Source: Tubulanus polymorphus
Taxonomy: Eukaryota > Animalia > Nemertea
Direction: 5' to 3'
Assembly (NCBI RefSeq): GCF_964204645.1
Contig: NC_134033.1
Coordinates: 7,634,655 to 7,698,654, forward strand
Length of the DNA stretch: 64,000 bases
Shown: positions 24,324 through 52,030 of the stretch, piece after piece
Layout: each line of letters opens with the position of its first letter
Position numbering within the stretch: the stretch's first letter is position 1
Notes under the pieces: model-generated
Seen by the model: only the letters and a program-made list of their open reading frames with translations
What the model was told of the DNA's origin: nothing
Databases searched by the model: none
Translations under genes and position numbers: made by a program

Positions 24324-24339
24324 TTTTTTAATTATATAA

Positions 24340-25639: not shown

Positions 25640-25654
25640 TTTTTTATTATGTAA

Positions 25655-27133: not shown

Positions 27134-27153
27134 TTAATTTTGTTGTTAAATAA

Positions 27154-28376: not shown

Positions 28377-28408
28377 AATTTTAACTTTAATAAAAATTTA
28401 TATAATAA

Positions 28409-29281
28409 ATGGAAGGAGGTAAAGTATATAAACATATTCCATACATCGATACACTTGAAAATAATGATGGTTTATATTATGTAATACCTTGTAATATAGC
28501 TTTGATATTTGATCCTATTTTCAAAATTTATAAAACTAAACTAATAGAAATCGATAATAATGAAAGTGAAGTTGTTGATAATTTAAGTAATGTAATTGAT
28601 AATAATGTAATACCTTCTACATCTAATAATGTAATACCTACTACATCTAATAATGTAATACCTACTACATCTAATAATGTAATACCTTCTACATCTAATA
28701 ATGAAATAATATCAAATGTTAGTGAAAATAGAAATTATTGTGGATATTGTAAAAGTGAATTTTCAAACGCTAGATCAAATTGGAATAAACATATGAATAC
28801 AAGGGTACATATTACTAATGTTATAGATCGTGTTGGTAAAAAAGAATTTATAGAACACCCATTTATATATGTTACAAAGTTTGTTTCAAATCAAAAAGTA
28901 AATGGTAAAGAATTATATGAAGATTTATTATTAGCGACACCTAATAAAGATGAATTAGATTTAACCGATGCTATTAAATTAGAATCAAACATTGTAAATG
29001 AAATATTAGGAGCAAACACTAATAAAGATAATAATGAAAATGGTGCCGTATGGCACCCACATGGTGATATAGTTACAGGAGAGCGCATTGATAATAAAGA
29101 TTCTATGAAACTTAAATCAGAAAATAAAGATATAGTTGAGATGACTAATAAGTATATCAATAAACCAATTATTTATGAAGATTCGGTAGAGCATTTGAAT
29201 AAATTGTTAGGGTCTGATGATGAATTGGAGAGTGATTCAGAAAGTGATTCAGAAAGTAATTATCTAACACTCAAAAAGTAA
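28409..29281 (+). CDS. Hypothetical protein with C2H2-like zinc finger, NNVIP(S/T)TS repeats and acidic tail
   Basis: 290 aa; CGYC...WNKHMNTRVH; 21-bp tandem repeat at ~28600-28700. Confidence 0.75.
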   Translation: MEGGKVYKHIPYIDTLENNDGLYYVIPCNIALIFDPIFKIYKTKLIEIDNNESEVVDNLSNVIDNNVIPSTSNNVIPTTSNNVIPTTSNNVIPSTSNNEIISNVSENRNYCGYCKSEFSNARSNWNKHMNTRVHITNVIDRVGKKEFIEHPFIYVTKFVSNQKVNGKELYEDLLLATPNKDELDLTDAIKLESNIVNEILGANTNKDNNENGAVWHPHGDIVTGERIDNKDSMKLKSENKDIVEMTNKYINKPIIYEDSVEHLNKLLGSDDELESDSESDSESNYLTLKK

Positions 29282-29286
29282 TAAAG

Positions 29287-29655
29287 GTTGAAAATTGTAT
29301 AAAATAATAGTAAATAAAAAAGGGGGTTTTAAGTATTAAGGTATCTAATACGTATTTAATACATATCTAAAACATATCTAATACGTATCTAATACGTATT
29401 TAATACTTATTATTTGAAAATACCTTAAATTATATTTCTTTTTTAAATTTATATTGAAACCTCAGTAATAATAAATAACCTTTACTATTTTCAAACTTAT
29501 TCATATATTAGTTGAAAAAAATAAAAATAAATTGGTTGAAAATTGTATAAATAATATTTATTTTAAAAAAGGGGGTTTTAAGTATTTAAGGTATCTAATA
29601 GGGTATCAGGTATTAGGGTATCTAATAGGGTATCAGGTATTAGGGTATCTAATAC
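29287..29655. repeat. Duplicated ~65-bp block plus short gtatctaata repeats between convergent gene blocks
   Basis: ggttgaaaattgtata...aaaaaagggggg?ttttaagtatt.aggtatctaata at ~29287 and ~29533. Confidence 0.7.
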
Positions 29656-29671
29656 ATAGGTATACAAATAG

Positions 29672-30278
29672 TTATTTTATAAATTTATATTCATAGGGAA
29701 ATTGTAATCTCAGTAATAATTTTGAACCTTTATTATTCTTTAATTTATTCATATATTCATCATGTAATTCAGTAGGTATAATTTGATTTTCTTCCAATGA
29801 TTGTTGCATAGATTTTCTATCTTTATTGTAGAATAAAACTAGAAATCTTATATTCTCCCTAAAGTCTTTAACAATTGAATTATATTTTTGATTTAAAACC
29901 CATGTTGTTATCCCGAAAAGTCTCCCAGAGAAAGCTAAATAACTCACTTTCTCTCACTTTTGAATCATGTAAATTAGCGCAATCATCTATAATGAATAAT
30001 GTATTTGATCCTTTATAAGTATCAATTGCTATTCTAATACAATTATCTAAATTTTCTTTTACTGTTTTAGGATCTAATATAATAAAATTTTTCATCTTAA
30101 CTATATCTCTATTATATGTTTTATTCATTTCATATGTAGGACAGAATAATATTATATTATCAAAATGATTCTTATAAATAGTTTCTAACAAATCTAATAT
30201 GAAATGTGTTTTACCACAATTGGTTACTCCAGTAACTAACATATTATGCGGTTCAAATATAAATAAATCTTTATTCAT
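29672..30278 (-). pseudogene. A32/FtsK-like packaging ATPase, Polinton A, one frameshift
   Basis: Walker A GVTNCGKT, Walker B LFIIDD, SGR(L/H)FGITTWVLNQ; ORFs 29880 and 29672. Confidence 0.9.
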
Positions 30279-31380
30279 TTATTCTTTAAATTTTACTAGA
30301 TAAAATCCATTCATTAAATTTATCATCATATCCTTTATATTTAACCAAAGAATACTTTTTTCCTTTAAGAGTTTTTGTTTTCAATACTTTTTCTATTTTG
30401 TATTCTATTTCATCTAGATTTGGTACAAGTGATAATTCTTGTTTATAGAAATAACCTAATATTTCTTCATCTTTTAAATCTTCTAATTTATTAAAAAAAT
30501 GGTTTAGTTAATATTATCTTTTTAATCTTGAAAATTTCTTCTGTAAAATTTGGAGTATAACCTTTATAAAATGTTTTTCTATATTTAGATATTCTAACGT
30601 GTTGTCCTATTTTAAATTTAGGTTCACCGAAATCATGTGTAACAAATGCTCCATATAAATTATTCCAAACTATTTCCGAATTATCTTCTTTTCTAGCTTG
30701 TATAGGTTTCATATTTATAGAACTATGTTTAGAATTATTATAACCTTTCACCAAATCATCTAACACATCGATATATTTATATGTTTCATTAGCAGTAAAA
30801 TATTTCCACATTCTAGATTTCAATGTTTTATTAAATATTTCTATAATAGATGCTTTTTTATCTGAGTGTGTTGAAAAATAATCTACATCATTATCAGATA
30901 ATAGTTTTTTAAAATGTTTGTTATAAAATTCCTTACCTTCATCAAATATTACCTATATCAAAATTGTATCTTATCTGGAATAGCTTCTTTACATATTGAT
31001 TTAAAAGCATTTGTTACTTCTATTCCAGTTTTATTTTTGATTGGAATTGACCATGCGTATCTACTGAATATGTCTATAACATTCAATATCCAGAAATATC
31101 CTTTGTTGTATTCTTCTAAGTTCTTCATGTCAATTAAATCTGCTTGCCATTGTTGATCGATATATGAAACCATAACTTTTCTTGTTAAATAAGTTTTATC
31201 CATTTTCTTGTGGATTTGATATGTTGGTTGATTTTGTAACCATGATTTTAATTCACTATATTTTATATCACCATTTTCATTATCAGATTTAATTTTATTC
31301 CATAATTCTGAAACGTTAGAATATGATACTTCACTTTCTGGGTTATAATATAAATCTCTTAAATATTGTTCTTTTTTCAT
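30279..31380 (-). pseudogene. int: Retroviral-type (rve) integrase with chromodomain, Polinton A, frameshifted
   Basis: WQADLIDM, VIDIFSRYAW, IQF(DEGKEF), RMWKYFTAN, HSSINMKP, FKIGQHVRISK; the tail encodes YSLVKYKGYDDKFNEWI. Confidence 0.92.
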
Positions 31381-31386
31381 CTTCTT

Positions 31387-31746
31387 TTAATCCATTAATA
31401 ATAATGTACATTTAGTTTGAATGACTTTATGATTTGACTTATTTTCTGGTATGATAGGTTTATTGTCATTGGAATCATCTTTATCATCAGATTTGAATTT
31501 TGATTTATATATTACACCAGAGAATATAATAACTGTTACTAATCCAATTGTAATATATAATTTATAATTACTTCCAGCATTAGAAGAATCAGATGGATTA
31601 TTATTTGAATCAATATCAGGTGATTCATTTATATCAGTTAATTTCTTTTTCTTAGCTTTTTTTAATTCTGAAGATCTTTTACCTAATTCTCTTGCCCATT
31701 TAATTTGTTTCTCGGATCTAGCCATTTTCTTAACTCCATCACTCAT
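31387..31746 (-). CDS. Basic N-terminus, single-TM hypothetical protein
   Basis: 119 aa; RSEKQIKWARELGK...LYITIGLVTVIIFSGVIY; TAAATG start. Confidence 0.75.
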   Translation of the reverse strand: MSDGVKKMARSEKQIKWARELGKRSSELKKAKKKKLTDINESPDIDSNNNPSDSSNAGSNYKLYITIGLVTVIIFSGVIYKSKFKSDDKDDSNDNKPIIPENKSNHKVIQTKCTLLLMD

Positions 31747-31756
31747 TTATCTTATT

Positions 31757-32341
31757 TTATTTTTGTTCTGATTCATTTTCTGTTTCGCTGTTTGGTTGTA
31801 GTACATCTGTTTCGTTCTTACCTGATTTATATTCCATAGGCTTGATGTTCGAAAAAGTTATGACGCCAGTAGAAATTAATGTCATAACCGATCCTAATTG
31901 AAATGAAGCATAACCAACCCATTTTTGTAATTCAGTCATAACTAAATAGTCATTTTTCAAATCACTATATAATTTATTTTCATCATCAATTGGTATTAAC
32001 TGGTTACATAACTTAGAATAACATTTGACAATACCATCTGAAATAGAATCATTTATTCTAGCTAATCTTGCCTCTTCATAAATCTTAAAATATTTTATTA
32101 CTTTATCTGGTTTCATAGAGTCTAGTTCTTGAAAAGTAATGATTCTATTTAAAAACTCCTTAGTTTTTCCACCGGCAATCAATAGTTCTAGATGATGCTT
32201 ACAATATAAATAGTATTCATAATCTATATTACAATTAACTTGAGCATAATTAGTTACAACTGTATCTTTATTATCACTTATACCCAAATCATCTAATGTT
32301 TTTTCAATATCAATACTATTCTTATTAGATTTCTTTGACAT
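31757..32341 (-). CDS. Hypothetical Polinton protein
   Basis: Intact 194-aa ORF with a TAAATG start and a hydrophobic segment near the C-terminus. Confidence 0.75.
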   Translation of the reverse strand: MSKKSNKNSIDIEKTLDDLGISDNKDTVVTNYAQVNCNIDYEYYLYCKHHLELLIAGGKTKEFLNRIITFQELDSMKPDKVIKYFKIYEEARLARINDSISDGIVKCYSKLCNQLIPIDDENKLYSDLKNDYLVMTELQKWVGYASFQLGSVMTLISTGVITFSNIKPMEYKSGKNETDVLQPNSETENESEQK

Positions 32342-32653
32342 TTATATTAGAGAAAAAAAGCAAAAAATATTATAAGTATTCTTACTATGATACTTCGTAT
32401 GATACTAGCTAGTTAAAGCTAAAGAATTCTAGTATTGACTACTGATACTAGCTATTTGAATTTAAAGAATTTCTATTTGAATCTATTCAAAATATAAAGT
32501 ATTCTTTGTTGAAAAAAAAATATTAAAAATATAATAGAATTCACTAGCTAGTTGAAGTTATTGTTTTTTTATTATATTTTATTTAAATTCTATTTGATAT
32601 CTCACTACTATTGTCTATCTATTAGGAGCAGTAATTATAACTGTCCAGATAAG

Positions 32654-33323
32654 TCATTTCGGATCCTTGATATCAAATTCCTCAACGTATTGTTCATTAT
32701 TTGGATCATTGTTCCATTGATCAATAAATTTCTTTGCCTTTGTTAACTGTTCTAAATATAACTGTAAATCTAGTTTATTAGATTTGATTTGATTTTCTTT
32801 CTTTTCTAAAGGCCTTAAATTTTTCCAACCCCAAATAAGTTTTTTTATTGTATTCATCATTCATGTTAAATTTAGATATTGGTAACACGTGATCAATATG
32901 GTAATAATCCCCATAATTATCTATATTCATTTTATCATCGAATTGATATATTATCCATGATTTGAAAAATTCATCTGAACAACCCAATAAATTAGATAGT
33001 GTTTCTGAATGCGTTTCTTTGTTGAATAATTGTGTTAATCTAGATTGTTTCAATCTAAAATTAAGATCTGTTTGATATCTTTCTCTCATATATTCTGTCA
33101 TATAATCATTATAAGCTTCTCTATTATCTTCTCGATATTGTTTGGTATATAGTTTAAAACAAGTTTTACAACAATATTGAAAACCATCTTTGCTAATCTT
33201 ACGCTTACTAAATTCTGTTAAAGCTAATTTATCTAATTCACATTTAGAACACTACTTGTAATATATATTTATAACACCAGTGTTATTTGTAATATTGATA
33301 GTTTGTGGTTGTTCTGGTTCCAT
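32654..33323 (-). pseudogene. HNH endonuclease with N-terminal CxxC..CxxC zinc ribbon, disrupted
   Basis: From ATG 33323: CSKC...KDGFQYCCKTC...LLGCSDEFFKSWI...NYGDYYHIDHVLPISKF...WKNLRPL...ENQIKSNK. One in-frame stop and one frameshift. Confidence 0.8.
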
Positions 33324-33454
33324 TTATTATACGTATTTTTTACTAAATTGGTTAATATTTTAGAATCCTCTTCCATTTCTTCGACCAACGTCATCCTTTT
33401 TCATTCCTCGCTGCTTTTGATAAATTGTTTCGATTCCTTGATATCTAAATAATA

Positions 33455-33770
33455 CCACTGGGCAAAAGCGCGCATTCATGCGCGGTTTTGCTCAATGCGC
33501 ATGCGTTAATCATAATTATATATTCATTATGTAAATTCTGTAAAATAGAAACAACCGACATGAAATATCTAAACGTGTTCGCATTAGGCAAAACCGCGCA
33601 TTCATGCGCGGTTTTGTTCAATGCGCATGCGTTAATCATAATTATATATTCATTATGTAAATAGAAACAACCGACATGAAATATCTAAATCATACCACTG
33701 AGCAAAACCGCGCATTCGTGCGCGGTTTTGCTCAATGCGCATGCGCTAATCCTAATTATATATTCATTCT
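33455..33770. repeat. Three tandem ~120-bp units, each with a GC-rich hairpin
   Basis: Example: tgagcaaaaccgcgca-ttcg-tgcgcggttttgctca (33699-33734, 16-bp stem) followed by the palindrome gcgcatgcgc. Confidence 0.85.
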
Positions 33771-34522
33771 GAATAGAAACGACCGAACATAAAAATTCGC
33801 CAATCAGATTTACACAATACATTATACAAGTTGTTCGGCCGTTTCTTCCAATACATCATTTGATTTCTATAAATACAATTTATAATTACAAACATTTTTT
33901 CAATTGCTGGTAAATATTTAAATACATCAACAAATGTTAAACTTAATCATTGGAGTCTTAATGTTTTTGAAATTCTTATATAGTTTCTTCGTCGATCTTT
34001 TGGCGATTCTTGTGTTTCTTGTGCTAATTTCTATTGGTTCGATATCCCCATTGCTGTTGATTCCTCAGTCAGAAAGAGTATCTTGAGTTTCTCTATCACT
34101 TCTTGATGCGTATGGCGTTTTATTAATCTAAAAGATATAAGCGGCAACTCTAGCCATCTAAAAGATATACTAAATACACTTAAATATATCTAAAGGTTTC
34201 ATATTTAATAGCCCTAATAACTACAAAAAACAGTACTTACATTTAGATTTAGAATTGTAAACTATAAACTCCTAATTTCGTTTCGAGAGATAGAATATCC
34301 TGAGCGTAATGTTACAGCGCCTGTTCATTTCTTGCCACGTCATCTGGTTCCGGTTCTAGAGTGTTCTACACGTTTGTAATATTATGACTCATATGTCTCG
34401 GCGTCATAGTAACAGCTGTAACAGCTGTGAATTTATAGATTTATTCAATAGTTCATTACATGAAATGTATATAGGCTCAAATAGAATCATGTTCTAGTAT
34501 AAACAGCTATGCATTATTTCAA

Positions 34523-35071
34523 TCACACTTTACTAACACTTTTAATGTTTAAAAATCTAACTCACACAAATATGAATATTGAAATAATGTTGTAAATATA
34601 TACTTTTATATTGAATAATCTGTCAATTTAAATGTTATTCATTTACATGAATATTTTAAGAGTAATAGGGGTAATGGGCTTTCAGGTTAAAGGTTGAATG
34701 GTCGAGTTCATTAAAAAACAAATATTAAAAGTAATTTAAAACTATAATATATTTTCATAACCGTGTGTATTTCAGTTGAATAATAGAATAATTATTATTA
34801 TTTGAATATATTTGATTATATGAATTTGTGTATTGTAAATAAATCAATTGGTCGCGGAGCGGAGCGGTAGCGAAGTGGAGCGACCAATTGATTTATTACA
34901 ATATGCTTTTAAAATTTAAATTATCAATATCTTAGAATAAATATTTAGTTATAATATAAAATACACACGGTTATGAAAATATATTATAGTTTTAAATTAC
35001 TTTTAATGTTTTGTTTTTTAATGAGCTCGACCCTTCGACCTTTGGCCTGAAAGCCCATTACCCCTATTACT
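34523..35071 (-). repeat. Right TIR of Polinton A (internal palindrome 34661-35071)
   Basis: Reverse complement of 17281-17829. Confidence 0.95.
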
Positions 35072-35466: not shown

Positions 35467-35602
35467 CCTAGTACAGTGAGGATACTCGACCATGGGGGCA
35501 ATTAAGTTGCAAACCACAGTAATTGGAAAAGTGGGCTTTCAGATCAGAGGTCGTGCGGTCGAGACACCACTCATCACCACAAGTAATTTTTTTTCCTAAT
35601 AA

Positions 35603-38600
35603 ATGGGGGAGAATGAACACCAGCCAGAAAACAATAATGTTAATAAAAATCAATATTATTGTCAATATTGTAAAAAATACATCGATAAATCCCAAAAATC
35701 ACGACATGAAAAAACTGCAAATCATATAAAAAATGTAATAGATTTTGAAACTTCAGAAAAATTCCAATGAAAGAAAAGAACAATTAGAAAATATGAATGT
35801 GGTTGAAATAAAATGTGAAGTTTGTAATGAATTTATAACAAAAAGGAATTATAATAGACATCTCGAATCACAAAAACACCACCAAAATTTGAGTAATAAT
35901 GTTTTAGGAAAAGATTATTTTGACGATAAACCTCAAAAAGTAAAAAAACCAAATTCAAAAACTAAATCCATTTCAAATAAACCTTACATGGAAAATGTTA
36001 GAAATTATATTGATTCACTAGAAATAAAAGATACAATTGAAATTTTAGAAACATTACATAGTAAAGTTGGTCCTGCAGCTATTATATTTAGATTTTTTAA
36101 AGGTACAACAATAGAAGATTATAGTAAATTTAATGAAATAATAGAAAAAATACTAGATTTGATAACAGATGTTGAATATCCAAAAATTAGTATCTCTGGG
36201 AAAGTAAGTTTTATAAAGTCAGAAGAAAAAATGGATTATAATATTCAAACACTCTCTGAAGAAATAATTTCAAAAACGCAAATAAAAGAGAAGTTAGAAA
36301 AAATATTTAATGAATTTAAACGTCATATTGAAGAAAGATATTTTGAGGGTTCTGGCTTAACATTGAATGAAATTATATATTTAGATTTAAATGTTTACAA
36401 TACAAAAAGGAATAAAACATCAAAAAGTAATAAAATGTTTAAAAATGATTCAAACTTTACAACAGAAAAGGATATTAAAGCATCATCTTATATTAAATTA
36501 CCATTTACAACAAAAGCAGTAATAAATATTCAAAATGAAGATAATAAATGTTTTCTATGGTCAATTATTAGTTGCTTACATCCAATACAGGAAAATGTTT
36601 GTAGAATAACAGATTATCGGAAATACGAAACATTATATAAAATTGATCAATATCCAGTTACGTTAAAAATGATTCCTAAAATAGAAAAAGTTAATAATTT
36701 AAAAATAAATGTATTTGAATTATTGCAATTACCAAAGACAAAAGGTGAAAATATTAAAAATTATACATTGGAAGCTTTATATTTAACAGAATATTATGAT
36801 GATGAAAATGCTATAGATTTGTTATATTACAAAAAAGATGAAAATGAACATTATATGTGGTTAAAACAAATTGATTTATTCTTTAGAACAGAAAGTGATC
36901 ACCATCATAAAATTTATCTATGTAGAAAATGTTTATCTAAATTTATGACTGAGAATACATTATTAAAACATAAAGAATTACGTGATAATAAAGATTTTTG
37001 TAAATTAATAATGCCAACAGAAAAAGATTATAAATTAAAATTTACTAATCATAAATTTAAAAATATTGTTCCATTTGTAATTTATGGGGATTTTGAATCG
37101 TTGAATAAAGAATTAACTGATCAAGATAGAAAAGAAATATATAACAAAAAGCAATTATTAAAATCAATGGATAAAGGAAATGAATTAAATGAAGACGCAA
37201 CACAAGACCCACCAATCATAAATACAATTTAAAAAGTTCATCAAAGAGCTGCTGCTTATGGAATTTACATCAAATCAAATTATCCCGAATTATATGAAAG
37301 TCAATATATTTCTTTTAGAGGTGAAAATGTAGTTAATGATTTTTGTGACAAAATGATTGAATTAGAAAGTGATTTTGCAAAATTATTAAACAAAAATAAA
37401 AGAATAGTTATGACAAAACGAGATGAAATTGATTTTAATTATGCAACTCATTGTTGTTATTGTGAAAAACGTTTTTATTCATTTGATAAAAAAGTTAGAG
37501 ATCATGATCATTTAAATTCAAAATATCGTGGAGCTGCTCATGAAGATTGCAATTTACAAGCTAAGAAAGTTAATTTCGTACCAATATTATTTCATAATTT
37601 ATCAGGCTATGATACCCATCTATTTATAAAACAATTATCAGGACAATTGGGCGCAATTAATCAAGAAACAGAAGAATATAATGCTATGAATGGTGTAAAT
37701 GTAAGAAAATATGATTTTAAACTATTAGCTAAAACATCTGAAAATTATATTTCATTTCAATTTGGTTGCATTAGATTTTTAGATTCTTATAGATTTCTAG
37801 CAAGTTCATTAGATAATTTATCAAAAAGTTTAGTTGATAATGATTTTATAATAACTCGATATTATTATCCAAATGAACAAGATTTTAAATTATTGAGATA
37901 TAAAGGTGCAATTCCTTATTCATTTTATAAAACACACAATGATTTTAATGTAACAGAATTATTAAAAGATCAATTTTATGATCAATTAAAAGAGGAGTAT
38001 GTGAAAGACGAAGTGTTTAATAGAACATTAAATATTTGGAACCATTTTAAGATGAAAAATCATGGCGAATTAGTTGATTTTTATTTAAAATCAGATGTTA
38101 TGATATTGGCTGCCATATTTGAAAAATTTAGAGAAGTTAATTTGAATCATTTTAATGTTGATCCTTGTTATTGCTACTCTAGCTAGTCCTGGTTTAACCT
38201 GGCAATGTGGTTTAAAATATGCAAATGTAGAATTAGATTTATTAAAAGAACCAGACATGGTTTTATTATTTGAAAAATCAATTAGAGGTGGAATTAGTGG
38301 TGTTATGGGAGATAGATATTTTAAAGCAAATGATGAATATAAATTATTATATATTGACGCCAATAATTTATATGGTTGGGCAATGATGCAACCTCAACCA
38401 TATAAAAATTTTATATTAACAGAAGTTGAAAGTGATGATAAAACTAATTGGGAAAGCGCAATTATGAGTTTAGAAGATGAAGCACCAATTGGTTATTTCT
38501 TTGTAGTTGATTTAGAATATCCTGAAAATATAAAGTTTAAAACAAGAAACTTACCTTATTGCCCAAAACATTTAACTGTAGATGATAGTTATTTAAGTGA

Positions 38601-40415
38601 ATACCAGAAGAAAATAAAACCGAAAGATCATGTTTTTACAGAAAAATTTATACTTACTCAAAATAATAAATACAATTATATTGTTCATTATAGAATGTTA
38701 AAATTTTATCTAAAACAAGGAATGAAATTAAAGAAAGTACATAGATATATTGAATTTAATCAATCGAAGTGGTTAGAAAAATATATAGATTTCAATACTC
38801 AACAGAGAACAATATCAAAAACAGATTTTGAAAAAGATTTCTTCAAATTAATGAGTAATAGTTTTTATGGTAAAACATGTGAAAATATTAGAAATAGAAA
38901 TGATATTGAATTAGTAAATAATTCTGAAAGATTAAGACATTTACAATCAAGTCCTGGACATTTAGGAAATAAAAGATTTAAAGATTATTTAACAACAGTT
39001 AAATTAAAAAGAACGTCAATGAAATTTAATAAACCCATATTCATTGGTTCAACTGTTTTAGAAGTATCAAAATTATTAATGTATGATTTTTATTATAATG
39101 TTTTACAACCACTTTTTGGGGAAAAGCATATTGAAATATTATATTTTGATTCTGTTACAGCTGACACCCCAATATTATTAAAATGTAATGATAAAATATT
39201 GATAAGAAGAATTTCAGAAATAATTCCAAAACAAAATGAATGAATCATATGTCATTTGATGAAATAATTAATAATATTTATAACATAGAACCCGAAACAT
39301 TAGAAGAAAAAGAATATTTTATCAAAGGATTTTTCATGGGTGATGGATCAGCAGGTGTGTATAATTATGTTTGGGGTAATAAATATTGTTGGTATTTATG
39401 CAATCAAGACTTAAAATTATTAGAAAGAATTAAGAAATTCTGTGAAGAAGTTTATTCACATAAAACATTTAGAATCATGGATCATACGAAATCATCAGCA
39501 GTTTATAGAATAATTGTAAATAATCCTAAAGATTTTGCTATAAAATATAATGATGAATTCTATATTCATGCAATAGTGAAAAGTAAAACTTCAACTAAAG
39601 AAAAGATAGTTCCAGATTATGTATTAAATGCAAAAAAATATTTAAGGAAATGGTTCTTCATTGGATTCTACGCAGCAGATGGTTCAAAAAGTTTCAAAAA
39701 CCGCAAAACGATATCTTTAGCTCAAAAAGGAAAAGTTGCTATATCAGGATTGAATATATTATGCAATTCATTAGGTTTTAATATGAATATTGGATTGATT
39801 AAATCTAAACCAAATTGCTTTAATTTAAGCCATGTAGAAAATGAGTTAACAGAAGAAGTTAAAGATTTATTTGAAATATATAACCCAACTGACTGTGTTT
39901 ATGATTTATCAACTGAAGATGGTACATTTAACTGTGGATTTCCATCAATAGCGGTCAATACCGACAGTTACATACTAAAAATCAAGACAAATGACATAAC
40001 AAAAGACTTAAAAACATTAAAACATCATTTTGATTTTAGCAATTATCCCAAAGATCATGAACAATTTAGCAATGATAATAAAAAGATTCCTGGTAAATTT
40101 AAAGATGAATTAGGGGGCGATGAAATGATTGAATTTGTTGGGATAAGAAGTAAAATGTATAGTTATAGAACAAAAGATCATGAAGCTAAAAAGTTAAAAG
40201 GAATAACAAAACATGTGGTTGATAAACATATAGAATTTCAAGATTATATAAAGTGTTTATATAACTCAATTGTAATGAAACACAAAATGAATTGTTTAAG
40301 ATCAGAAGATCACGAGATGTACATTAATGAAGTTGAAAAAACTAGTTTAAATCCATTTGATGATAAAAGGCATATTTCAGATGATGGTATAAAAACATTA
40401 CCTTATGGTTATTAA
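35603..40415 (+). pseudogene. polB: pPolB of Polinton B with two N-terminal C2H2 fingers and an intein, disrupted
   Basis: ATG 35603 (MGENEHQ...YCQYCKK...RHEKTANH) frameshifts into ORF 35745, followed by 37353, 38155 and 39240. Same motifs as A. Confidence 0.95.
39151..39959 (+). mobile_element. Intein with LAGLIDADG homing endonuclease in pPolB motif C (pol-c site), degenerate
   Basis: YFD|SVTADTPILLK (block A) ... FIKGFFMGDGS ... FFIGFYAADGS (two LAGLIDADG helices) ... VYDLSTEDGTFNCG (block F) ... IAVN|TDSY. It is absent from A (YFD|TDS at 21143/21144). Confidence 0.92.
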
Positions 40416-41275
40416 AACATAAAATCAATATCATCATACTCGAAATCACTATTGGCTTCTTCATTTTCATTTAATTGTTCTTGTATAATTTGTTTAGGTT
40501 CTTCTTCCATTTCATTTTTCTTATTTAAATAAAGTTCTATCTTGTTCCACATTTCATCTCGCTCTCTTTGTTTCTTTTTTTTTGTTAATTCGTCAAATGG
40601 AATTATAATATCTATGTTTAAATAATTTACAATCTTATTCAAAAAGAATTCATAATTTATTGAATCTGTTATTCTATTTTCCAAATGATACATTAATATT
40701 TGTTTGAATATTTTTTTTATATTTTTCATATCTTCTTCTGTTAATTTAGATTTTTCATAATAATCGTTAAATAATAAATGTAAATACATTTTCTTTTGTT
40801 TTGTGTTAAATGTTGATGGAATAATTGTTTTTATAATATCTTTTTTAGTTATTTCACCATTTTTTTTTCCATTATTTTCATTTTTTCAAGCCATTGCATA
40901 TATTCTGGTGTATGATCTTCTATAGAAAATATTTTTAAAATTTCATCTAGATAATTTAATTTTGGATCTATGAGAAAATTTCTAGTTTTTTCTTCACCCA
41001 ATAAATTCTTTTGCCATCCACATTCATTACAAAATAACACAGTACCTTCTTGTTTTTTAAGGCATAACTACATTGTGGATATTTTCGTTTATAATTTATT
41101 GGTAATAGATCTTCATTAAGTTCCTGGTATTTTCTTACGTTTTCTTTATGTTTTATTGTTCTATTATGTAGATTTGAATTACTTGTTGTAATAATCAATT
41201 TACAATTTGTTAATTCATTATATTGTTTTTCTAACTTTTCAACCGTTTCTTTATTATCTGGTAACGTTTTCTCAT
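40412..41275 (-). pseudogene. One or two fragmented hypothetical genes specific to Polinton B
   Basis: Overlapping short ORFs 40412, 40849 and 40968 with coding-like composition (CxxC pieces, acidic tail). Confidence 0.45.
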
Positions 41276-41278
41276 ATT

Positions 41279-41719
41279 TTATTTTTCTAATAAACTATTT
41301 TTTCTTTCATTGAATTCTGTTTCAAATTTATTAGAAATTTTATCTATATGTGCTTTACGAAATTGATGATTCTCCCAATCTTCTATATTTTCAGGTCTAT
41401 ATTTTACTTGACAAGGCTCACAGAAATGATCTTTCATATTATCCTCATCATAGAATAAGAAAGGTCTTTTCCAAATACCTTCAGGTTCAACTTCAACAGA
41501 ATTACTATTACTTTCATTACTATCAACATTAGCCGTTGCGCCATTAATTTTACACTTCTCTGAATGTTTTTTAACGTAATTTCTTGAGAATAATTTATTA
41601 CATTTTGGGCAGTTTAGTTTAGGGGGTTTATATTTTTCATCACGTTTTTTCATATGTCGAGCCATATTACTTTTTCTTAGAAGTTCACCACAAATTTCGC
41701 ATGCTATCATCTCATCCAT
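41279..41719 (-). CDS. Multi-C2H2 zinc-finger protein
   Basis: CEICGELLRKSNMARHMKK, CPKCNKLFSRNYVKKHSEKC, CEPC...HQFRKAH; TAAATG start. Confidence 0.75.
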   Translation of the reverse strand: MDEMIACEICGELLRKSNMARHMKKRDEKYKPPKLNCPKCNKLFSRNYVKKHSEKCKINGATANVDSNESNSNSVEVEPEGIWKRPFLFYDEDNMKDHFCEPCQVKYRPENIEDWENHQFRKAHIDKISNKFETEFNERKNSLLEK

Positions 41720-41787
41720 TTATTAAGGAAAAATTTTATTAAAATTAATTTTTAGTGATGAGCGGAAATTTTTTTATGATATAAATA

Positions 41788-42556
41788 ATGGTAGAATTAA
41801 AAGAATACAGAATATTTGTTGATTCTAGAAAACTTACAAATTATAAATCACATAATTTACTAGTACAATTAGATAGAGAATTTATGAATTGTGTTGATTT
41901 AAAATTAGTTAATATAAGTTTATGTAATTCTTTTTATAATGTATCAGATAAAACTGATGAACATAGAACCTTTTTTATTCATGATACAATTAAACTTGAA
42001 TGGATTAATCTTATGCTTACACCAGGATTATATAATTTAGATACATTAGCGCAAGAAATTAATAGAAAAGCTCGAGCTAAATTAGGAAGTGATTCTAAAT
42101 TTAATATTAAATTCATAAAAAGTGAGAGCTCTAATAAAATTAAAATAAAGTTTAATAATGAAAAACCTTGTTTTACCTGCTTACTATGTAAAAAAACCTT
42201 TTGCTAAACTGTTAGGAATTCCTCCAGATAAAAGTATTGTTGAAAACATATACGGTATATCAAATTTAATACCTTTTACGCATTTTTATATTTATTGCAA
42301 TTTGATTGACCCAACAAAAACATTTGAAGCAACTAAAGATACAATTTGTAATTCTAGTATATTAAATATTTTACCATTAAAAAATGTTAAACAATTTGGA
42401 ACGCAAATAAATTATAATTTAGCTGAATGTGATTTTAAACCTTGTATTCCACATTTCAATAATTTTAAATTAGAAATAAGAAATCATAATGGATATTTAA
42501 TTGATTTGAATAACTTTCCTGTGATATATGAATTAGTTATAAGATGTAGAGAGTAA
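41788..42556 (+). pseudogene. Minor capsid protein (penton), Polinton B, one frameshift
   Basis: ORFs 41788 and 42158; PFTHFYIYCNLID...LEIRNHNGYLIDLNNFPVIYELVI. Confidence 0.78.
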
Positions 42557-42572
42557 TTTTTTCATTAAATAA

Positions 42573-42920
42573 ATGAATATAACTGTTGGGCCGAGTATGT
42601 GTTTTGGATTTGATTTTAAACGTGAGAAAGAAATGAAATTTAACATTAATGATGTTATTACACAAATCAAAAATATTGCATTTTCTAATGAAACAACATT
42701 TAAGTATGAAAAAACAATAGATAAAGAAACTTTTAATGTAAAAAAGATTACTAATTTTATTAGAGAATCTTTAAGATTTTATGAATTAGATGAAGATTCT
42801 ATCATCGATGATATTAAAAAAATAATAATTGAAATATATACAAATGAAACTAGTAATGAAATAAATGTTGAAATAATCATCACTAAATATTTTGAAGATA
42901 GTAATTTTTTTGATAAATAA
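42573..42920 (+). CDS. Hypothetical protein (paralog of 22844)
   Basis: Near-identical to the copy in A. Confidence 0.75.
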   Translation: MNITVGPSMCFGFDFKREKEMKFNINDVITQIKNIAFSNETTFKYEKTIDKETFNVKKITNFIRESLRFYELDEDSIIDDIKKIIIEIYTNETSNEINVEIIITKYFEDSNFFDK

Positions 42921-43142
42921 ATGAGTGATAATAAGTGGATAATAACTGGATTATATAATGGAGCATTACTATCAGTTGGAACTGTTGGTTATTCAATGGT
43001 ATTAAAAAAAGTATTTAAAATTGGAAGTGTTAATGTTGATAGATTTGATATCAATGATATTTTAAAATTAACATTAGCAGTTACTTTATCTAATTTAACT
43101 ATTGATTATTTGGAAAAACAAAAATATATTCCTCCCATATAA
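42921..43142 (+). CDS. Small hydrophobic protein (paralog of 23200)
   Basis: 72 of 73 residues identical to the copy in A. Confidence 0.8.
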   Translation: MSDNKWIITGLYNGALLSVGTVGYSMVLKKVFKIGSVNVDRFDINDILKLTLAVTLSNLTIDYLEKQKYIPPI

Positions 43143-43166
43143 ATACATTATTATTTTACTAAATAA

Positions 43167-43589
43167 ATGGCTTCTGCAGTTATAACTATTATAGGATCGG
43201 CAATTGTTAACGCTTTAGCATTTACTGGTGGCGGTTATTTATTTAAGCATATTGATAAAAATGGATCATTAACAGAACAAAAAAGACATAACTTAGCATT
43301 AGAGAAATATAATAAAACTGCGGAAGAATATAGAGAAAAACGACAAAACTATATGGATAACATCAATAAAGAATTATATGATCAGAAGATTTCACACAGA
43401 GATTTTCAATCAGTTGATGATGCAATGTGTTTATATAACGCGGTAACCAATAAAGAAAAATTACATCTATACAAACCTAAATTATCAGATTATTATACCC
43501 CGAGTAATGAACAGAAGAAATATGAAATAATTTGGATTTTAGGTGGAACAGTTATTGTTATATTTGTAGCATATAAATTTACTAATTAG
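43167..43589 (+). CDS. Putative membrane protein (paralog of 23447)
   Basis: Near-identical to the copy in A. Confidence 0.8.
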   Translation: MASAVITIIGSAIVNALAFTGGGYLFKHIDKNGSLTEQKRHNLALEKYNKTAEEYREKRQNYMDNINKELYDQKISHRDFQSVDDAMCLYNAVTNKEKLHLYKPKLSDYYTPSNEQKKYEIIWILGGTVIVIFVAYKFTN

Positions 43590-43608
43590 TAATTTTTTTT
43601 CTAAATAA

Positions 43609-44068
43609 ATGGAAGATAAAGTTGATAGTATTGATATTATTCCTCATGATATAAATAATAGAAAAACAAATATTAGAATTTGAAAGTGACTTAAAGATAA
43701 AAAAGAAAAAATATTTAAAAAGTAAAATTATACATTATTTGATTATAAGTGGTTCGGTTACAATTAGTTCTGTAATAACATTTCTAGCAATATTCAGTCC
43801 ATTAACACCTTTAGCTATATCAATTGGTGTATTAGGATTAAGTTCAAGTGTTTTAACTGGTATAAGTTCAAAATTGAATATAAAAAGTAATAAAGAAAAA
43901 ATTAAAACTAATATAAAAGAAATTAATAAATTAAAGAATACACTAGATTATATAATAAGTTTAAATGGTCATATAACAGTTGAAGAACAAGATAAATTAT
44001 TAAAAGAATTAGTTAATTATTATTTTTTTTATTATATAAATGGGGTTTCCAAAAGCTTTCCAATATAA
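43609..44068 (+). pseudogene. Two-TM membrane protein (paralog of 23889), frameshifted
   Basis: TAAATG start at 43609; hydrophobic core in ORF 43739. Confidence 0.65.
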
Positions 44069-45349
44069 TAAATCACATGAATATTATAAATATAATACTC
44101 CAGCAATAGATTTTAGTAACATGATAATATATAAAAATTTAGTTTTACCTTCATTGATTAATTTAGAAATTTATGTTACTGAAACAAACTATTTTATTTC
44201 TAAAATTGAAAATATATTTAATACACATGAAGTTACTTTTACTCGAGATGAATATAATATATATAAAGTAAAATCTAATATAAAATATTGGCAGAATCAA
44301 TTAAATTTTGCTGTTCATTGTGCAACAGCTGGTTGTGGTGTAAGTTGGCATGATCACTTGAATAACTTAGATAAAAATTTGAAATATTCTGATTTAAAAT
44401 TCATTCATAAAATATTTAGATTTCATGTATACTTTCAAATTAGAATTATATTAAATGAATTAGAATGCCCTTTACCTGGATCAAAATATTTTAAAGAATT
44501 GGATAATAATATTAATCTATCTAAGTTTTATAAAATATGTAATGAATTTAATATAAATATTAATTTCGATTTTAAAGCGCATGGTAAATTGCAAGGTGTT
44601 GGTGAAGAGTTTGAAATAAAAAGAATTGATTATATGCATAGAATTTCAGCTCATCATAATTATAAAATTGATAATAATAATGGTTGGGTTTATTTTATTG
44701 AATCTTATATTGAAGGATTTACAAAACCTGGTATACAAAAAATAAATCAATCTATTAGAACTTATTTGATATGTATTTTAGGTGCACAAGTTGAAACAAG
44801 ATCACCAATAGTTGGAAATAATAGTACTTCATTTGATGCGCAGAAACAATTCAAAGTATTATTTGAAGATTCCATTCATAATGATAAAAATAGATCGATT
44901 CCAGAAAACATTGTAAGATATCAAAATTATTTAGATAAATCACATATTAGATTAAATTATTGTATAGGACCTAATCTATTAATTATTTCTAATGATTTAG
45001 TATTAAAGATGGGAAATATAATTGGTTATAATAATCTAATTAAAACTGCAACAATAAACAATTCAATCGGATTAAATGATATAAATAAAAAGATTATTAC
45101 TGCTCCAAAATTAATGGAAGGTGAAAAAAATAAAAAACACATTCAATCAACAGAAACTAAAACTAATAATATTAAATTAAATAATGATTCCAAAATAAAA
45201 GATACAATACTACAGAAAATATTAAAACTGATAATATTCAACATGATATAATTAAAACTGATAATGATAATAAATTACATGAAAATACTAAATTAGCTTT
45301 AACTTGTATAGGAATTGTTATAGGAGGAATATTATATTTTAAATTTTAA
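44040..45349 (+). pseudogene. YWQNQLNFAV-family protein with C-terminal TM (paralog of 24340), frameshift near the 3' end
   Basis: 403-aa ORF plus an out-of-frame tail ...KLALTCIGIVIGGILYFKF*. Confidence 0.8.
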
Positions 45350-45365
45350 TTTTTTTATTATATAA

Positions 45366-46818
45366 ATGGATGTAGAAGGTGGAGAAGATATTGGAATGGA
45401 TCCTTTTGATGAACCTGGCATAACTGATGAACAACAACCTGATTTTAGTGAAACAAGTTTTAATGACGGTAATGAGCCAGGATATAATAATAATTTAAAT
45501 ATGCCTGATTATATTAAAAATGCAGAATCACAATTAAATCCTGAAAATTTAGACCCAGGTTTAGTAAAAGAAAATTTAGATAATTTAAACAAAATACCTA
45601 AATTAGAAGATTTAATTGAAAAATCTAAACTTAACATAAACGATGAAGACGTTGGACCTTTAGTAGATAAATTAAGATTTTTAGATAATGGTAAATGTTA
45701 TTATAATTTGAACGGTGATTATTATATTGATATCACTTATTAAAAAAAAATAATAACAAAATTAACTTTGAGAAAATTAGATCCAGATAGAATTAAAAGA
45801 ATTAGTAATAGGAATGTAATAACTGATGTTATAAAACAAGAATTAACTGATAATGATATAGACGTATTTAAACAAAGAATTAATGAATTATTTGAAATAA
45901 TCAAAAAGAAATCAGAAACAGAAACAACTTCTGAACAGAATATAACTTCCAAAACTAGTAAACTTAAATCAAATAAAGTTCTAATTGAAAAACTTTTACC
46001 GAATGGATTACTTGATGCAACAGATCAACAATTAGAAGATTTAAATATATTTTCTGATGAAGCAATTAGAGAAATTATTAGTATAAGAAATGAAGCTGAT
46101 AAAATTGCACATAATAAAAGTATAAGAGATCAAAAAATTATGTATTTGGAAAAAGAATTAACTAATGCAAATAAAGAAATAGAACAAATAAAGTCTGATT
46201 TAGATCATCAAGTAATTGATGAAATAGAATATAGGCAAAAAGAATTACGTTTAGAAAAAGAAATTAATAATTTAAAAGATAATTTAGAAGTATAGAAAGA
46301 AGAAATTAAATTATTATTAAAATCATATGATTATAATATTAATAGATTAAAAGTTATTTTTAAGATTTGTTGATTAAACCAAATTCTGAAATATGATTTT
46401 AAAAGATAGAATAAAGTTATTATTTAAATTAGAAGGAATAACAATTCTTTCAATTCTAACAGCTGTAACTATGTTATTTACAACAATTGGTTTAGCAATA
46501 TCAAATTCTTTGAAATCTACTCCTACTCCAAATAAACCGGATAAACCACCAGGTAATAATTCTATACAAGATAAAGTTAAAGATGGTTTAAAGAAATTAG
46601 CAAAATATTTATGGGAACTATCTAAAAAATCTGCTGCAGCATTACCAGGAATTATTGCATCAATTGTTGGTTTTATATTGAAATCTGCAGGAAACATTAT
46701 TAACTTTGCTGCTGAACATATTATTTTATTTTTAATTACAGTTGTAAGTGCTATTATTTTTGGGTTAGTGAATATGATATCGAAAAGATATCAAGAAAAA
46801 ATAATAAAAAATAAATAA
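45366..46818 (+). pseudogene. Coiled-coil / multi-TM protein (paralog of 25655), disrupted
   Basis: ORFs 45366, 45768 and 46393. Confidence 0.8.
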
Positions 46819-46838
46819 TTAATTTTTTTGTTAAATAA

Positions 46839-48116
46839 ATGAGTGGGAGTTATATAAGTCCTTATAAGATTTCTAGAATATCTAATGCTATTAAAGCAGA
46901 AAGATCACATCATATAATTGCACATAATCCTTCAAATATTAATCCCGATGAAACTTTATATGTTAGAATTCCTAGATTAACACAAAATACTTTTTATGTT
47001 CCAAATAGTATTTATTTATCAGCTGATATAAAAGTAACTGGTCATGATAATAATTATGTTGTCGATAATGTTGGAAGATATTTGATTAAAAAATTAACTA
47101 TAAAGATTGGTCCAGAAACAGTTTTCTCATTAGATGATTATAATTTATTTATGCATTATAAAGATTTATGGTTAACTAAAGAAAATAGAAGTAATATGAT
47201 ATTTCAAGGCATCCAATCAGAAAACCATAATAAATTAAGATCAGGAGCTAATGACGCAATAGTAACTCGTGCCACAGATAATTTGATAAAAAAGATTTAT
47301 GGAAGCAAATATAAAATTCCATTAGATTTTGAATTGATAAATAATAATGCACCTTTATATAAATATGTAATTAAAGAAGATATTATATTTGAGATAACAT
47401 TTGCTCCTGTAAATGAAATTGTATTATCTAGCGTTGTTAAAGATATGGGTTATAAATTATCGAATATATGTTTAGAATATAACACAGTAACTAATGAAAA
47501 TATTGCTAGCACAATTCAAACTCAATACAATTTCAATTCTCGATTTTCATTATTATATGATTATATTGATAAATTGATAACTATTATTATTTTTTATTGA
47601 TAAACTGTAACTATTAATGCAAATGATGAAATAATTAATGAGAATATTAACTTCCCAAGAAGATCTATTAAAGGTATATTCATATTTTTTACCATTGCAA
47701 CATATTCTAATGGCACAATAAAGGTTGATAATTATTATAATCCTGAAATAACAAAAGTAGAAATAACTATTGAAGGAATAGCAAATAAAATATTTTGTCA
47801 AGGAATGAGAATGATTGATCAATGGCCAGAAATTAGAAACCATTTTATGAATGAAAAAGTAAAATCATTTGAAAATTGTAATATTAATCAAATTGATTAT
47901 TATACCGGCAATAAATATGCATTATGGTTAGATTTTAGAACAACAGAGGATAATTCATTACATGGTTCTGGAAAAAAACTACAGAACACTAAAGATGGAA
48001 TACAATTATTCATGAAAAAGAAAAGAGGAGACAAAAATTTTAAAATGCACATTTATATCATATCTGACGCACAATTAAATATTGTAAATTCACAATTAGA
48101 TAGTATTCAATATTAG
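46839..48116 (+). pseudogene. Major capsid protein, Polinton B, disrupted at ~47580-47610
   Basis: ORFs 46839 and 47805 are highly similar to A's MCP. Confidence 0.75.
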
Positions 48117-48146
48117 AAATATAAAGTTAAAATTAACGATATATAA

Positions 48147-49274
48147 ATGGGAGGTAAAAAAACTCCTAATACTAAAGAACAATATTTAAGAAATTTATAT
48201 TACAACCCTGAGAGTTCGGTTGCTTATTCTTCTACCAAAAATATATGGCGTCAAGTAAAACAAGATAAATTAGATAAAATAATCCCACAAAATTTAGTTA
48301 AATATAAAGATATAAATGAATTTATGTTAGAACAACCAACATACACAACACATAAAAAAATTGTTAGAAAATATAAAACTCGTAAAACTATGGTAAGTTA
48401 TGTAGATCAACAGTGGCAAGGAGATTTAATTGATATGAAAAATGTTAAGAAAGATAATGATGATTATTGGTGGTTATTGAATATAATTGATATTTTTAGT
48501 CGTTATGTATGGAGTTTCCCACTTTATAGAAAAGATGCTGTACAAACATCAAATGTTTTAAGAAAATTTCTTTCGGATGATAAACTAAAACCAGAAAAAA
48601 TACAATTTGATGATGGAAAAGAGTTTGATAATTCACTTGTTCATGAACTCTTAGATAATCATAATATTAAATATTTTTCAACAAAATCGGATAAAAAAGC
48701 AGCAGTTGTTGAACGATTTAATAGAACATTAAGAACAAGAATGTGGAAATATTTTACAGCAAATAATACTTTTAAATGGATTGATGTTTTACCAAAATTG
48801 ATAGAAGGATATAATAATTCTTATCATTCTTCTATTGGAATGAAACCTATTGATGCTAGAAAACCTGAAAATGCTGAAATTGTTTGGAATAATTTATATG
48901 GAGCATTTCTTGTAGATGATTTTGGTCAACCTAAATTTAAAGTTGGTCAAAATGTTAGAATTTCTAAGTATAAAAAGATATTTGACAAAGGATACGATCG
49001 AAATTTTACTAGAGAAATATATAAAATAAAAAAAGTAATAACAACAAAACCATATGTCTATAAATTAGAAGATTTAAATGGTGAAGAAGTTGATGGGTAT
49101 TTTTACGAAGAAGAATTAAGTTTAACTACTGAAAATCTAGAACAAGAATATAAAATTGAAAAAGTATTAAAAACAAAAACTATTAAAAGAAAAAAATATT
49201 CTTTAGTAAAATGGGTTGGATGGCCAGATAAATTCAATGAATGGATATTATCAAGTAAAATTAAAAATATATAA
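48147..49274 (+). CDS. int: rve integrase with C-terminal chromodomain, intact
   Basis: 375 aa; DDE residues in WQGD, QFDDGKEF and VVERFNRTL; chromodomain YKIEKVLK...YSLVKWVGWPDKFNEWI. Confidence 0.95.
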   Translation: MGGKKTPNTKEQYLRNLYYNPESSVAYSSTKNIWRQVKQDKLDKIIPQNLVKYKDINEFMLEQPTYTTHKKIVRKYKTRKTMVSYVDQQWQGDLIDMKNVKKDNDDYWWLLNIIDIFSRYVWSFPLYRKDAVQTSNVLRKFLSDDKLKPEKIQFDDGKEFDNSLVHELLDNHNIKYFSTKSDKKAAVVERFNRTLRTRMWKYFTANNTFKWIDVLPKLIEGYNNSYHSSIGMKPIDARKPENAEIVWNNLYGAFLVDDFGQPKFKVGQNVRISKYKKIFDKGYDRNFTREIYKIKKVITTKPYVYKLEDLNGEEVDGYFYEEELSLTTENLEQEYKIEKVLKTKTIKRKKYSLVKWVGWPDKFNEWILSSKIKNI

Positions 49275-49737
49275 ATGAATAAAGAATTATTTATATTTGA
49301 GCCTCATAATATGTTAATATCTGGCGTAACAAATTGTGGAAAAACTTATTTTATATTAAATTTATTAGAAACTGTTTATGAAAACTATTTTGATAATATA
49401 GTATTATTTTGCCCAACATATGAATTTAATCAAACTTATGATAGAAATATTACTAGAAATAATAAATTTATTATATTAGATCCTAAAACAGTAAAAGAAA
49501 ATTTAGATAATTGTATAAAAATAGCAATTGATAGTTATAAAGGATCAAATACATTATTCACTGTAGATGATTGCGCAAATTTACATGATTCAAAAGTGAG
49601 AGAAAGTGAGTTATGTTATCTAGCTTTCTCTGGGAGACATTTTGGGATAACAACTTGGGTATTAAATCAAAAATATAATTCAATTGTTAAAGACTTTAGA
49701 GAAAACATTAGATTTCTAGTTTTATTCTATAATAAAT
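49275..49737 (+). pseudogene. Packaging ATPase, Polinton B, 3'-truncated
   Basis: GVTNCGKT, LFTVDD, SGRHFGIT. Homology to A stops after FYNK. Confidence 0.9.
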
Positions 49738-49872
49738 TACCTTAAAATGGTTCTCCCAAGAACCCTGTCAAGAACCATTTGATAATATTGAAGAACCTTT
49801 AGGGGTTCTCCCTGGGAGGCAAGCCCAAGAACCCCTAAAGGTTCTTAGGTAGAACCCTTTGTTCTTTGAGTG
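49738..49872 (-). mobile_element. Terminal fragment of a non-autonomous DNA transposon (CACT-ended, EnSpm-like)
   Basis: The minus strand starts (TA)CACTCAAAG, with repeated and inverted AGAACC/GGTTCT motifs (agaacctttaggggttct...agaacccctaaaggttct). Confidence 0.5.
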
Positions 49873-51346: not shown

Positions 51347-51408
51347 AGATCAGAGGACGAGAGGACGACACACCACTCATCACCACAAGTAATTTTTTCT
51401 TTTAATAA

Positions 51409-51735
51409 ATGGGAGATAGAAAAGCATTCTTAGCGACAATAAACAACAGAATAAAACCAGCAAAAAACAATTTGAAATAAAAAAGGTTAGTTGATGTTAC
51501 AAAAGATATTGAACATAAAATATTAAAATTAGAAAAGATAAAAACTAAATACGGAGAGAAAGTATCAGCAAATTTAAGTTACCGTTATGTTAGTACAACG
51601 CGAGAATTTAAAGTATTTTTACCTGATAAATGGGTTTCATTGAGTATAGAGGAATTATAAGATTTAGAAGGATTTAAAATAATTTACCATGGAAAAAATG
51701 AAGATGGTCATCATGATTTAGAAGTTGTTGATTAA
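51409..51735 (+). pseudogene. Homolog of the 21703 small protein
   Basis: ...KTKYGEKVSANL...KVFLPDKW...*...IIYHGKNEDGHHDLEVVD*; one frameshift and one stop. Confidence 0.7.
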
Positions 51736-51794
51736 AAAAATAAATTGATTATAAAATTAATTGAAGATTAAGAATCCGAAATGACTTATTTAGA

Positions 51795-52030
51795 CGATTC
51801 AATTGATCGAGGCACTGACGAGAACGGTCGATTGCGTTGTGCTATGTACAGTGAGTGCGCGTAACAACAGCTGCGCTTGGATAGATCGACGTGGCGAGGC
51901 ATTGACGAGAACGGTCGATAGCGTACTGCTATATATAGTAGTACAGTCATTGTGTACCAGCTGCGCTCGGATAGATCGATACAGTGAGGCACTAACGAGA
52001 ACGGTTGATAGCGTGTTTGCTATATACACA
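51795..52030. repeat. ~88-bp GC-richer tandem repeat (about 2.7 copies)
   Basis: gaggca(c/t)t(g/a)acgagaacggt(c/t)gat occurs three times. Confidence 0.8.

Follow-up and report, generated by a model that had tools for sequence, protein, structure and literature searches.

The window, i.e., the whole 64-kb stretch of Tubulanus polymorphus DNA that we analyzed, holds two Polintons on the same contig, Polinton A and, beginning 446 nt beyond it, Polinton B (Table 1). Polinton A contains a broken gene for a protein-primed PolB (pPolB) together with remnants of an integrase and an ATPase, and it was inserted into a retrotransposon. In Polinton B, the polymerase (DNA_pol_B_2), integrase (rve), and ATPase (Pox_A32) matches were all over cut-off. 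A right terminal repeat was not found for this element, which is followed by LTR-retrotransposon remnants. No protease was matched among the window ORFs of at least 120 aa, Rfam gave 0 matches within the window, and the 64 kb contain no host gene. These elements share with the Polintons/Mavericks (adintoviruses) described in the accessible sections of PMC8502044 the terminal inverted repeats, AG...CT ends, 6-bp duplication, pPolB, rve integrase, A32 ATPase, and capsid remnant.

Table 1. Features of the window that are discussed in the text (pol-c, the intein site in polymerase motif C).
Feature	Position	Strand	Remarks
DUF5641-bearing retrotransposon integrase tail, insertion target of Polinton A	16998-17280	+	E 1.5e-7; resumes from 35074
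Polinton A	17281-35071	+	549-bp terminal inverted repeats, 99% alike; AG...CT ends; 6-bp target duplication GATCAT
Empty pol-c site of Polinton A, candidate homing target	21126-21158	+	insertion point between 21143 and 21144
Polinton B	35518-49745	+	left end like the terminal repeat of A; pPolB; capsid, integrase, and ATPase matches
pPolB gene of Polinton B, HNH/Endonuclease VII-type	35811-40415	+	broken: stop near 37230, frame change near 38180, and the intein break
LAGLIDADG intein remnant in pPolB motif C (pol-c site)	39151-39959	+	809 bp, ~90 codons shorter than full-length relatives
Intein N-terminal piece, block A (Ser1, SVTADTP)	39151-39240	+	in polymerase frame; stop at 39241-39243
Deletion junction, frame change	39238-39242	+	block B (TxxH) and the remaining N-terminal Hint half gone
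Intein C-terminal piece, 240 open codons	39240-39959	+	two LAGLIDADG motifs, block F, terminal Asn
Weak major capsid match (Capsid_N) in Polinton B	46839-47600		E 0.0016, under cut-off
rve integrase and weak chromodomain match in Polinton B	48147-49274
A32 ATPase (Pox_A32) in Polinton B	49275-49745

The terminal repeats of Polinton A (17281-17691 and 34661-35071) are themselves imperfect palindromes of ~410 bp, 79% self-complementary, and could form long hairpins at the ends of the element. Its middle genes (22059-28364) are 86-89% alike to those of Polinton B (41775-48104), against 75% for the polymerase, and the integrase-ATPase blocks of the two elements lie in opposite orientation and are 81% alike; by these comparisons, A and B look like mosaic elements. 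A third, fragmented Polinton left end with a pPolB, 88-93% like B, occupies 51344-59500, where it is interrupted by a Penelope-like RT/GIY-YIG element and tandem repeats, and its sequence ends ahead of motif C. Satellite-like repeats of complex structure were observed at 1-16000 and 13000-15200; they include a tandem array that is rich in GC (57-59%).

The polymerase of Polinton B is split in motif C as YFD/S...N/TDS (slashes mark the insertion point). The first piece of the insert runs for 30 codons before the stop, after which the reading continues in a different frame, leaving the intein out of frame with its polymerase. The second piece carries the LAGLIDADG motifs KGFFMGDG (39324-39347) and IGFYAADG (39660-39683) as well as block F (VYDL, 39897-39908), and it ends in ...AVN, with the terminal Asn at 39957-39959 followed by a +1 Thr. 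The sequence-only reading of this locus had described an 809-bp insert splitting motif C, with block A (SVTADTP), two LAGLIDADG motifs, block F, a terminal Asn and +1 Thr, a penultimate Val, a stop or frameshift at ~39240, and no visible block B, and all of this was borne out. The profile search for LAGLIDADG that it had proposed was likewise positive: among the 46 window ORFs scanned, Pfam LAGLIDADG_3 matched the intein with an E value of 3.2e-8, over the curated cut-off. A single-sequence search of the PDB returned PI-PkoII alone (E 0.054).

Aligned with the closest full-length intein, P0001 (57% identical), the N piece corresponds to residues 1-28 and the C piece to residues 119-354, and therefore ~90 codons, including block B, are missing. 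Pfam Intein_splicing found no match on this copy among the window ORFs because the N-terminal Hint half is deleted, whereas full-length relatives do match. This copy of the intein is thus dead, having lost its N-terminal splicing half, and its host element is dead too. Read alignments entering the deletion from the left and from the right overlap by ~5 nt (39238-39242), which suggests microhomology. The penultimate Val had also been counted among the signs of death, a cause that we rejected as unnecessary: the deletion is enough, and the residue at that position is variable in nature. More specifically, it is His in 8, Lys in 2, and Ser in 1 of 11 full-length relatives, and Lys in 125, His in 79, Phe in 13, Ser in 10, Val in 1, and another residue in 4 of 232 inteins of RNA-primed PolBs.

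Other copies in this species were assessed in reads sampled from a raw Illumina run with the same species label (1,934 Mb, ~12% of the run); four runs of one study contain 43-47% of the sampled window words. From this sample, 4,928 reads were placed on positions 38600-40500 at ≥85%, with a summed depth of ~110-260 inside the intein and ~290-520 in its flanks. At the deletion, 165 reads are loose-ended before 39238 and 94 behind 39242, as compared to a local depth of ~235, and therefore most copies are longer at this break. The internal deletion could be private to the window copy, or it could be an assembly error. Among the rows listed, intein-internal indels in the reads occur as compensating pairs. 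In addition, 60 reads join the two flanks, skipping exactly 809 bp, and 23 further reads do so with a variant site, from which it follows that the B family has true empty alleles. A copy number of roughly 50-250 would result if the genome measures 0.5-2 Gb, a figure that is arithmetic and not a measurement.

An assembly chimera, which the sequence-only reading had named as grounds for abandoning its proposal, was not found, since contigs from three other runs read across the left junction (X2, 38962-39192; X3, 38880-39242) and the right one (X1, 39858-40039; X3, 39860-39987). The same insert also occurs at the same site in 11 database proteins, and its base composition is like that of its flanks (26% versus 24-26% GC). 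With no supporting point found for an assembly error, we regard it as a practically negligible explanation of the insert or of its junctions.

Polinton A has the site unoccupied, with a 33-nt exact run common to its empty site and the joined intein flanks of B. This much of the earlier description stands; its term "allele" does not, given that A and B share 75% DNA identity over the polymerase. A is therefore a different subfamily and its site a paralogous target, and the true empty alleles of B are those seen in the reads. At A's site, 108 reads break into sequence like the start of the insert, and the depth just past the site is ~410; these reads cannot tell whether A-type copies are filled because the left flanks of B-type copies are ~90% alike there. 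The co-conversion peak between A and B that had been suggested was rejected by both comparisons made: 11% of 60-nt windows reach the similarity of the window on the site, and same-residue codons are identical at 39 of 53 positions near the site versus 174 of 273 elsewhere (p=0.21), with no peak. As a separate observation, about one-third of the reads across A's empty site have synonymous changes in the first three codons past the insertion point (21146-21151), and these variants are candidate cleavage-resistant alleles.

Relatives of the insert were collected by word-index searches, a full HMMER search, and cluster look-ups, which gave 560 and 2,294 matches at E 0.001 (the best 150 and 120 were listed). 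We sorted 344 proteins, to which P0245, P0253, and P0231 were added by hand afterwards. Among the 344, 232 RNA-primed PolBs and 16 pPolBs, several of the latter near-copies, have a complete intein at the same motif. Distinct full-length pPolB-type inteins number 11 among the matches listed and the three additions; they are in-frame inserts of 337-354 aa, and none of the 11 lacks Ser1, either LAGLIDADG motif, block F, or the terminal Asn. A +1 Ser, Thr, or Cys (Thr in the full-length members) follows in each of them and in the window copy, and block B is present as TxDH in 10, with P0240 being the one without the motif. Five of these inteins (P0001, P0002, P0248, P0251, and P0253) lie in frame within uninterrupted pPolBs of 1,504-1,693 aa, and P0231 has short flanks only. 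Intein_splicing and DNA_pol_B_2 were over cut-off for P0002 and P0003 and under it for the others. The pPolB inteins are just 42-50% identical between families, and the motifs are nonetheless kept. The intein family looks functional; the window copy is a relic.

The fold was examined on the relative P0231. Its AlphaFold model (47-row alignment, pLDDT 92) resembles the TliVMA, PhoVMA, PI-PkoII, PI-PfuI, and PI-SceI inteins, with E values from 1.7e-17 (TliVMA) to 1e-12, and PI-PkoII was also found by profile (E 1.3e-11); the predicted structure matches a Hint fold with a two-motif LAGLIDADG endonuclease, and acidic residues are present in the two motifs. These archaeal and yeast inteins of solved structure differ from it in being only 11-20% identical and in residing in other host proteins or sites, with single-copy microbial targets. 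ESM Atlas look-alikes (best score 0.88), which we treat as a lead only, were mostly Nucleocytoviricota PolB-intein clusters.

The P0231 cluster has 55 members, and the 15 listed come from ENA contigs of 19-825 kb, with decayed copies 85-92% alike. Five of these 15, and P0235, start at a Met ~11 residues ahead of intein residue 1; nine of the 15 end 4-7 residues past the Asn, and beyond ~5 residues the flanks are unlike pPolB. One possible reading is an intein-endonuclease ORF that stands free and was amplified within a single genome; another is that the copies of an amplified dead Polinton share frameshifts.

The nearest non-Polinton relatives are inteins of giant-virus-type RNA-primed PolBs at the same motif, and the best matches are 38-46% identical. 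The sequence-only identification of a pol-c LAGLIDADG intein in a Polinton pPolB, including this affinity, holds. Giant-virus pol-c inteins (e.g., that of Mimiviridae sp. ChoanoV1, P0299) resemble the pPolB inteins in the insertion point (xxD/S...N/TDS), a length of ~340-350 aa, Ser1, TxDH, and two LAGLIDADG motifs. They differ in the host, which is here the protein-primed PolB of a 15-20-kb integrating element with many chromosomal copies, and in the C-terminal signature, which is GFPL(I/L)xxN in the pPolB clade instead of G(I/V)GxxxxxN.

Our intein tree comprised 63 rows: 13 pPolB inteins (including the C piece from the window), 46 of 237 RNA-primed PolB inteins, and 4 others. The RNA-primed rows were every second of 72 dereplicated inteins plus 10 close matches, with no archaeal pol-c intein among them; the fragments P0081, P0215, P0230, and P0239 were excluded. 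Related inteins P0105, P0175, P0242, and P0199 lie in type II topoisomerases and an XRN exonuclease and served as outgroups only. All pPolB inteins form one clade (SH-aLRT 100), and their single origin is well supported by this tree. The clade is nested in a group with a support of 99 that contains 18 RNA-primed PolB inteins, including that of Mimiviridae ChoanoV1, and a simpler model also nests it (SH-aLRT 95). A giant-virus PolB donor, as proposed by the sequence-only reading, is likely but unproven: the tree, which has no archaeal pol-c rows, favors this direction, and the AU test does not reject the monophyly of the RNA-primed PolB inteins (p=0.29).

It is somewhat unlikely that the pPolB inteins are instead sister to those of giant-virus PolBs or come from an unsampled source such as a phage, an archaeal virus, or a mirusvirus. 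The AU result leaves room for such an origin, as do the long stem leading to the pPolB clade (0.41), the composition of the tree, and the labels of its rows: around five of the RNA-primed PolBs in it are labelled viral, few have named taxa, and the majority of RNA-primed PolB matches are without a taxon name. Against it speak the nesting in the best trees under two models, the identity of the best non-Polinton matches and their position at the same site of RNA-primed PolBs, and the phage records, of which just 2 of 50,697 matched, at 27% and 24% identity. Searches for P0001 or P0231 in metagenome contigs, and for the window piece in viral contigs, found nothing with exact short patterns, which is a weak negative.

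In comparisons between families of HNH-type pPolBs, identity is ~45-50% for the inteins and likewise for the exteins, and the two trees are largely congruent. The invasion is therefore old and not private to this genome, which modifies the proposal of an entry into the animal germline here. P0253, whose polymerase carries a VSR-like motif, departs from this pattern: its exteins are 23-32% identical to the rest over the alignable parts, and its intein is 42-49% identical. This is best read as a jump of the intein between distant pPolB types, although the AU test does not reject a position of P0253 outside the other pPolB inteins (p=0.09).

Two Polinton families besides B have filled and empty alleles at ~99% identity. 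The clusters headed by P0002 and P0004 comprise 136 and 121 proteins, with listed members on contigs of up to 1 Mb and 55 kb, as expected of multi-copy elements in eukaryote genomes. For the P0002 family, 7 filled and 6 empty alleles were compared (13 of 136 members), and for the P0004 family, a few of 121. Counted per 30 residues, divergence between filled and empty P0002-family alleles stays at 0-5% as far as the site and reaches 30% and 16% in the two windows located there; all nine fixed differences lie within -7 to +43 of the site. The filled flank, HYMD/TDSFVLSV, also occurs in P0003, P0240, and P0241, which have exteins of 68-75% identity. Such a pattern would be left by homing that co-converts sequence from a sister family, or by the survival of resistant empty alleles. 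The filled alleles of this family, being nearly identical, may stem from one gain followed by transposition. In the P0004 family, the exteins of P0031 (filled) and P0034 (empty) are identical except at 2 of 742 residues. All six empty P0002-family alleles differ from the filled flank, and among the empty alleles of this family, some (P0020 and P0022) have DCD for DTD in polymerase motif C and others have DTDA. Natural empty site types include QYFDTDAM and HYTDCDSM.

We weighed these data against the possibility that the intein splices and no longer homes, i.e., that it is an old resident inherited with its element, and that empty alleles arise by precise loss or by ordinary recombination between families. 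The agreement of intein and extein trees and their equal divergence in the HNH-type pPolBs fit prolonged vertical inheritance no less than homing inside families, A and B show no co-conversion signal, and empty sites are still common in the species, as judged by the depth of ~410 against 108 breaking reads at A's site. However, none of the 11 full-length relatives has lost either endonuclease motif despite ~50% divergence, the fixed differences of the P0002 family cluster at the site, filled and empty alleles of the P0004 family have 2 differences in 742 residues, and the extein and intein of P0253 are mismatched. We therefore consider the loss of homing unlikely. Mobility between Polinton copies, which the sequence-only reading had anticipated, is likely in view of the filled and empty alleles and the clustered fixed differences.

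The host is very probably an animal, a view that rests on the BEL/Pao-type sequence flanking Polinton A and not on a host gene. Polinton A was inserted, with a target duplication, into a retrotransposon bearing DUF5641, a domain that we take to be the tail of BEL/Pao integrases, and B follows on the same contig. BEL/Pao elements are treated as a metazoan subclass in the accessible part of PMC3118150. Elsewhere, P0245 sits on a contig of 2.5 kb from an assembly labelled as that of a lucinid clam symbiont, and this contig is most simply clam DNA. Were the host a protist, an oomycete, or a co-sequenced organism, the intein would not be in an animal genome; the lack of a host gene in the window and the occurrence of HNH-type pPolBs in oomycetes, reported in the available portion of 10.1101/2023.08.22.554363, would agree with that, but the retrotransposon target of A and the presumed clam contig make it very improbable.

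Homing-type nucleases inside Polinton polymerases are known from the HNH and VSR insertions in pPolB2 (10.1101/2023.08.22.554363), and the polymerases in the window carry an Endonuclease VII (HNH) insertion as well. In the accessible text of that source, these insertions are fused domains, no splicing domain is described, and the word "intein" occurs 0 times. In contrast, the window insert is a separate, canonical Hint-LAGLIDADG intein; it occupies the active-site motif, and alleles with and without it exist. The accessible text of PMC11161782 (preprint PMC11071308) proposes intein invasions as the source of the nuclease insertions in polinton pPolBs, and the adintovirus survey (PMC8502044) has 0 mentions of intein in its accessible sections. 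A 2018 survey (PMC5784728) counted 67 inteins in viral DNA polymerases and 0 in Metazoa, and it speaks of their absence from metazoan genomes; the portions of its text and supplement files at hand name neither Polintons nor Mavericks. The sections consulted of PMC12220804, PMC3671162, and PMC5718144 treat inteins in general terms only, and those of PMC5871332 deal with giant-virus PolB inteins and competition by homing. In the full-text literature, a scope outside which subscription papers, InBase, and Repbase fall, we found no earlier account of Hint-LAGLIDADG inteins for Polintons or for pPolBs in general. The insert belongs to a known type of selfish element, found here in a host protein class that is new for it and, probably, in a new kingdom; the case is more general than the sequence-only reading could show.

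Collectively, we read the insert as a broken copy of a motif-C Polinton intein whose full-length members are predicted to splice and likely to cut empty sites and be copied into them, and we assign this reading a probability of about 0.8. By analogy with class 1 inteins, splicing would proceed through an acyl shift at Ser1, transesterification by the +1 Thr, and Asn cyclization, and it would rejoin the D-T-D of the active site, so that the polymerase would work only if the intein splices. By analogy with LAGLIDADG homing, the freed endonuclease would cleave empty pol-c sites, and repair from a filled copy would convert them, carrying a few flanking codons along. Such conversion could take place during the replication of free elements or between chromosomal copies, and the very many Polinton copies in the genome would be the supply of targets. 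The lineage would have entered pPolB once, long ago, probably from a giant-virus PolB with the same motif, and then spread with HNH-type Polintons, making at least one jump to a distant pPolB type.

A more far-reaching version would have an active homing intein in animal germlines that reached the catalytic motif of Polinton polymerases from giant viruses long ago. It would now be present in tens to hundreds of chromosomal copies in some invertebrates, spread through Polinton families by cleaving their empty sites, select for recoded sites that resist it, and have passed from one pPolB type to a distant one. We give this version slightly less than an even chance.

If the host is an animal, the absence of inteins from Metazoa fails, by way of an endogenous virus-like element and not of a cellular gene. 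A single homing lineage can exploit one catalytic motif in polymerase classes as distant as the RNA-primed and the protein-primed, and the intein would be a physical trace of contact between Polintons and giant viruses in one cell. Since filled, empty, and recoded-empty sites are abundant in single genomes, the cycle of invasion, resistance, and decay is testable within one assembly. Moreover, conserved splicing motifs in an active site would mean that these Polinton polymerases were expressed and under selection.
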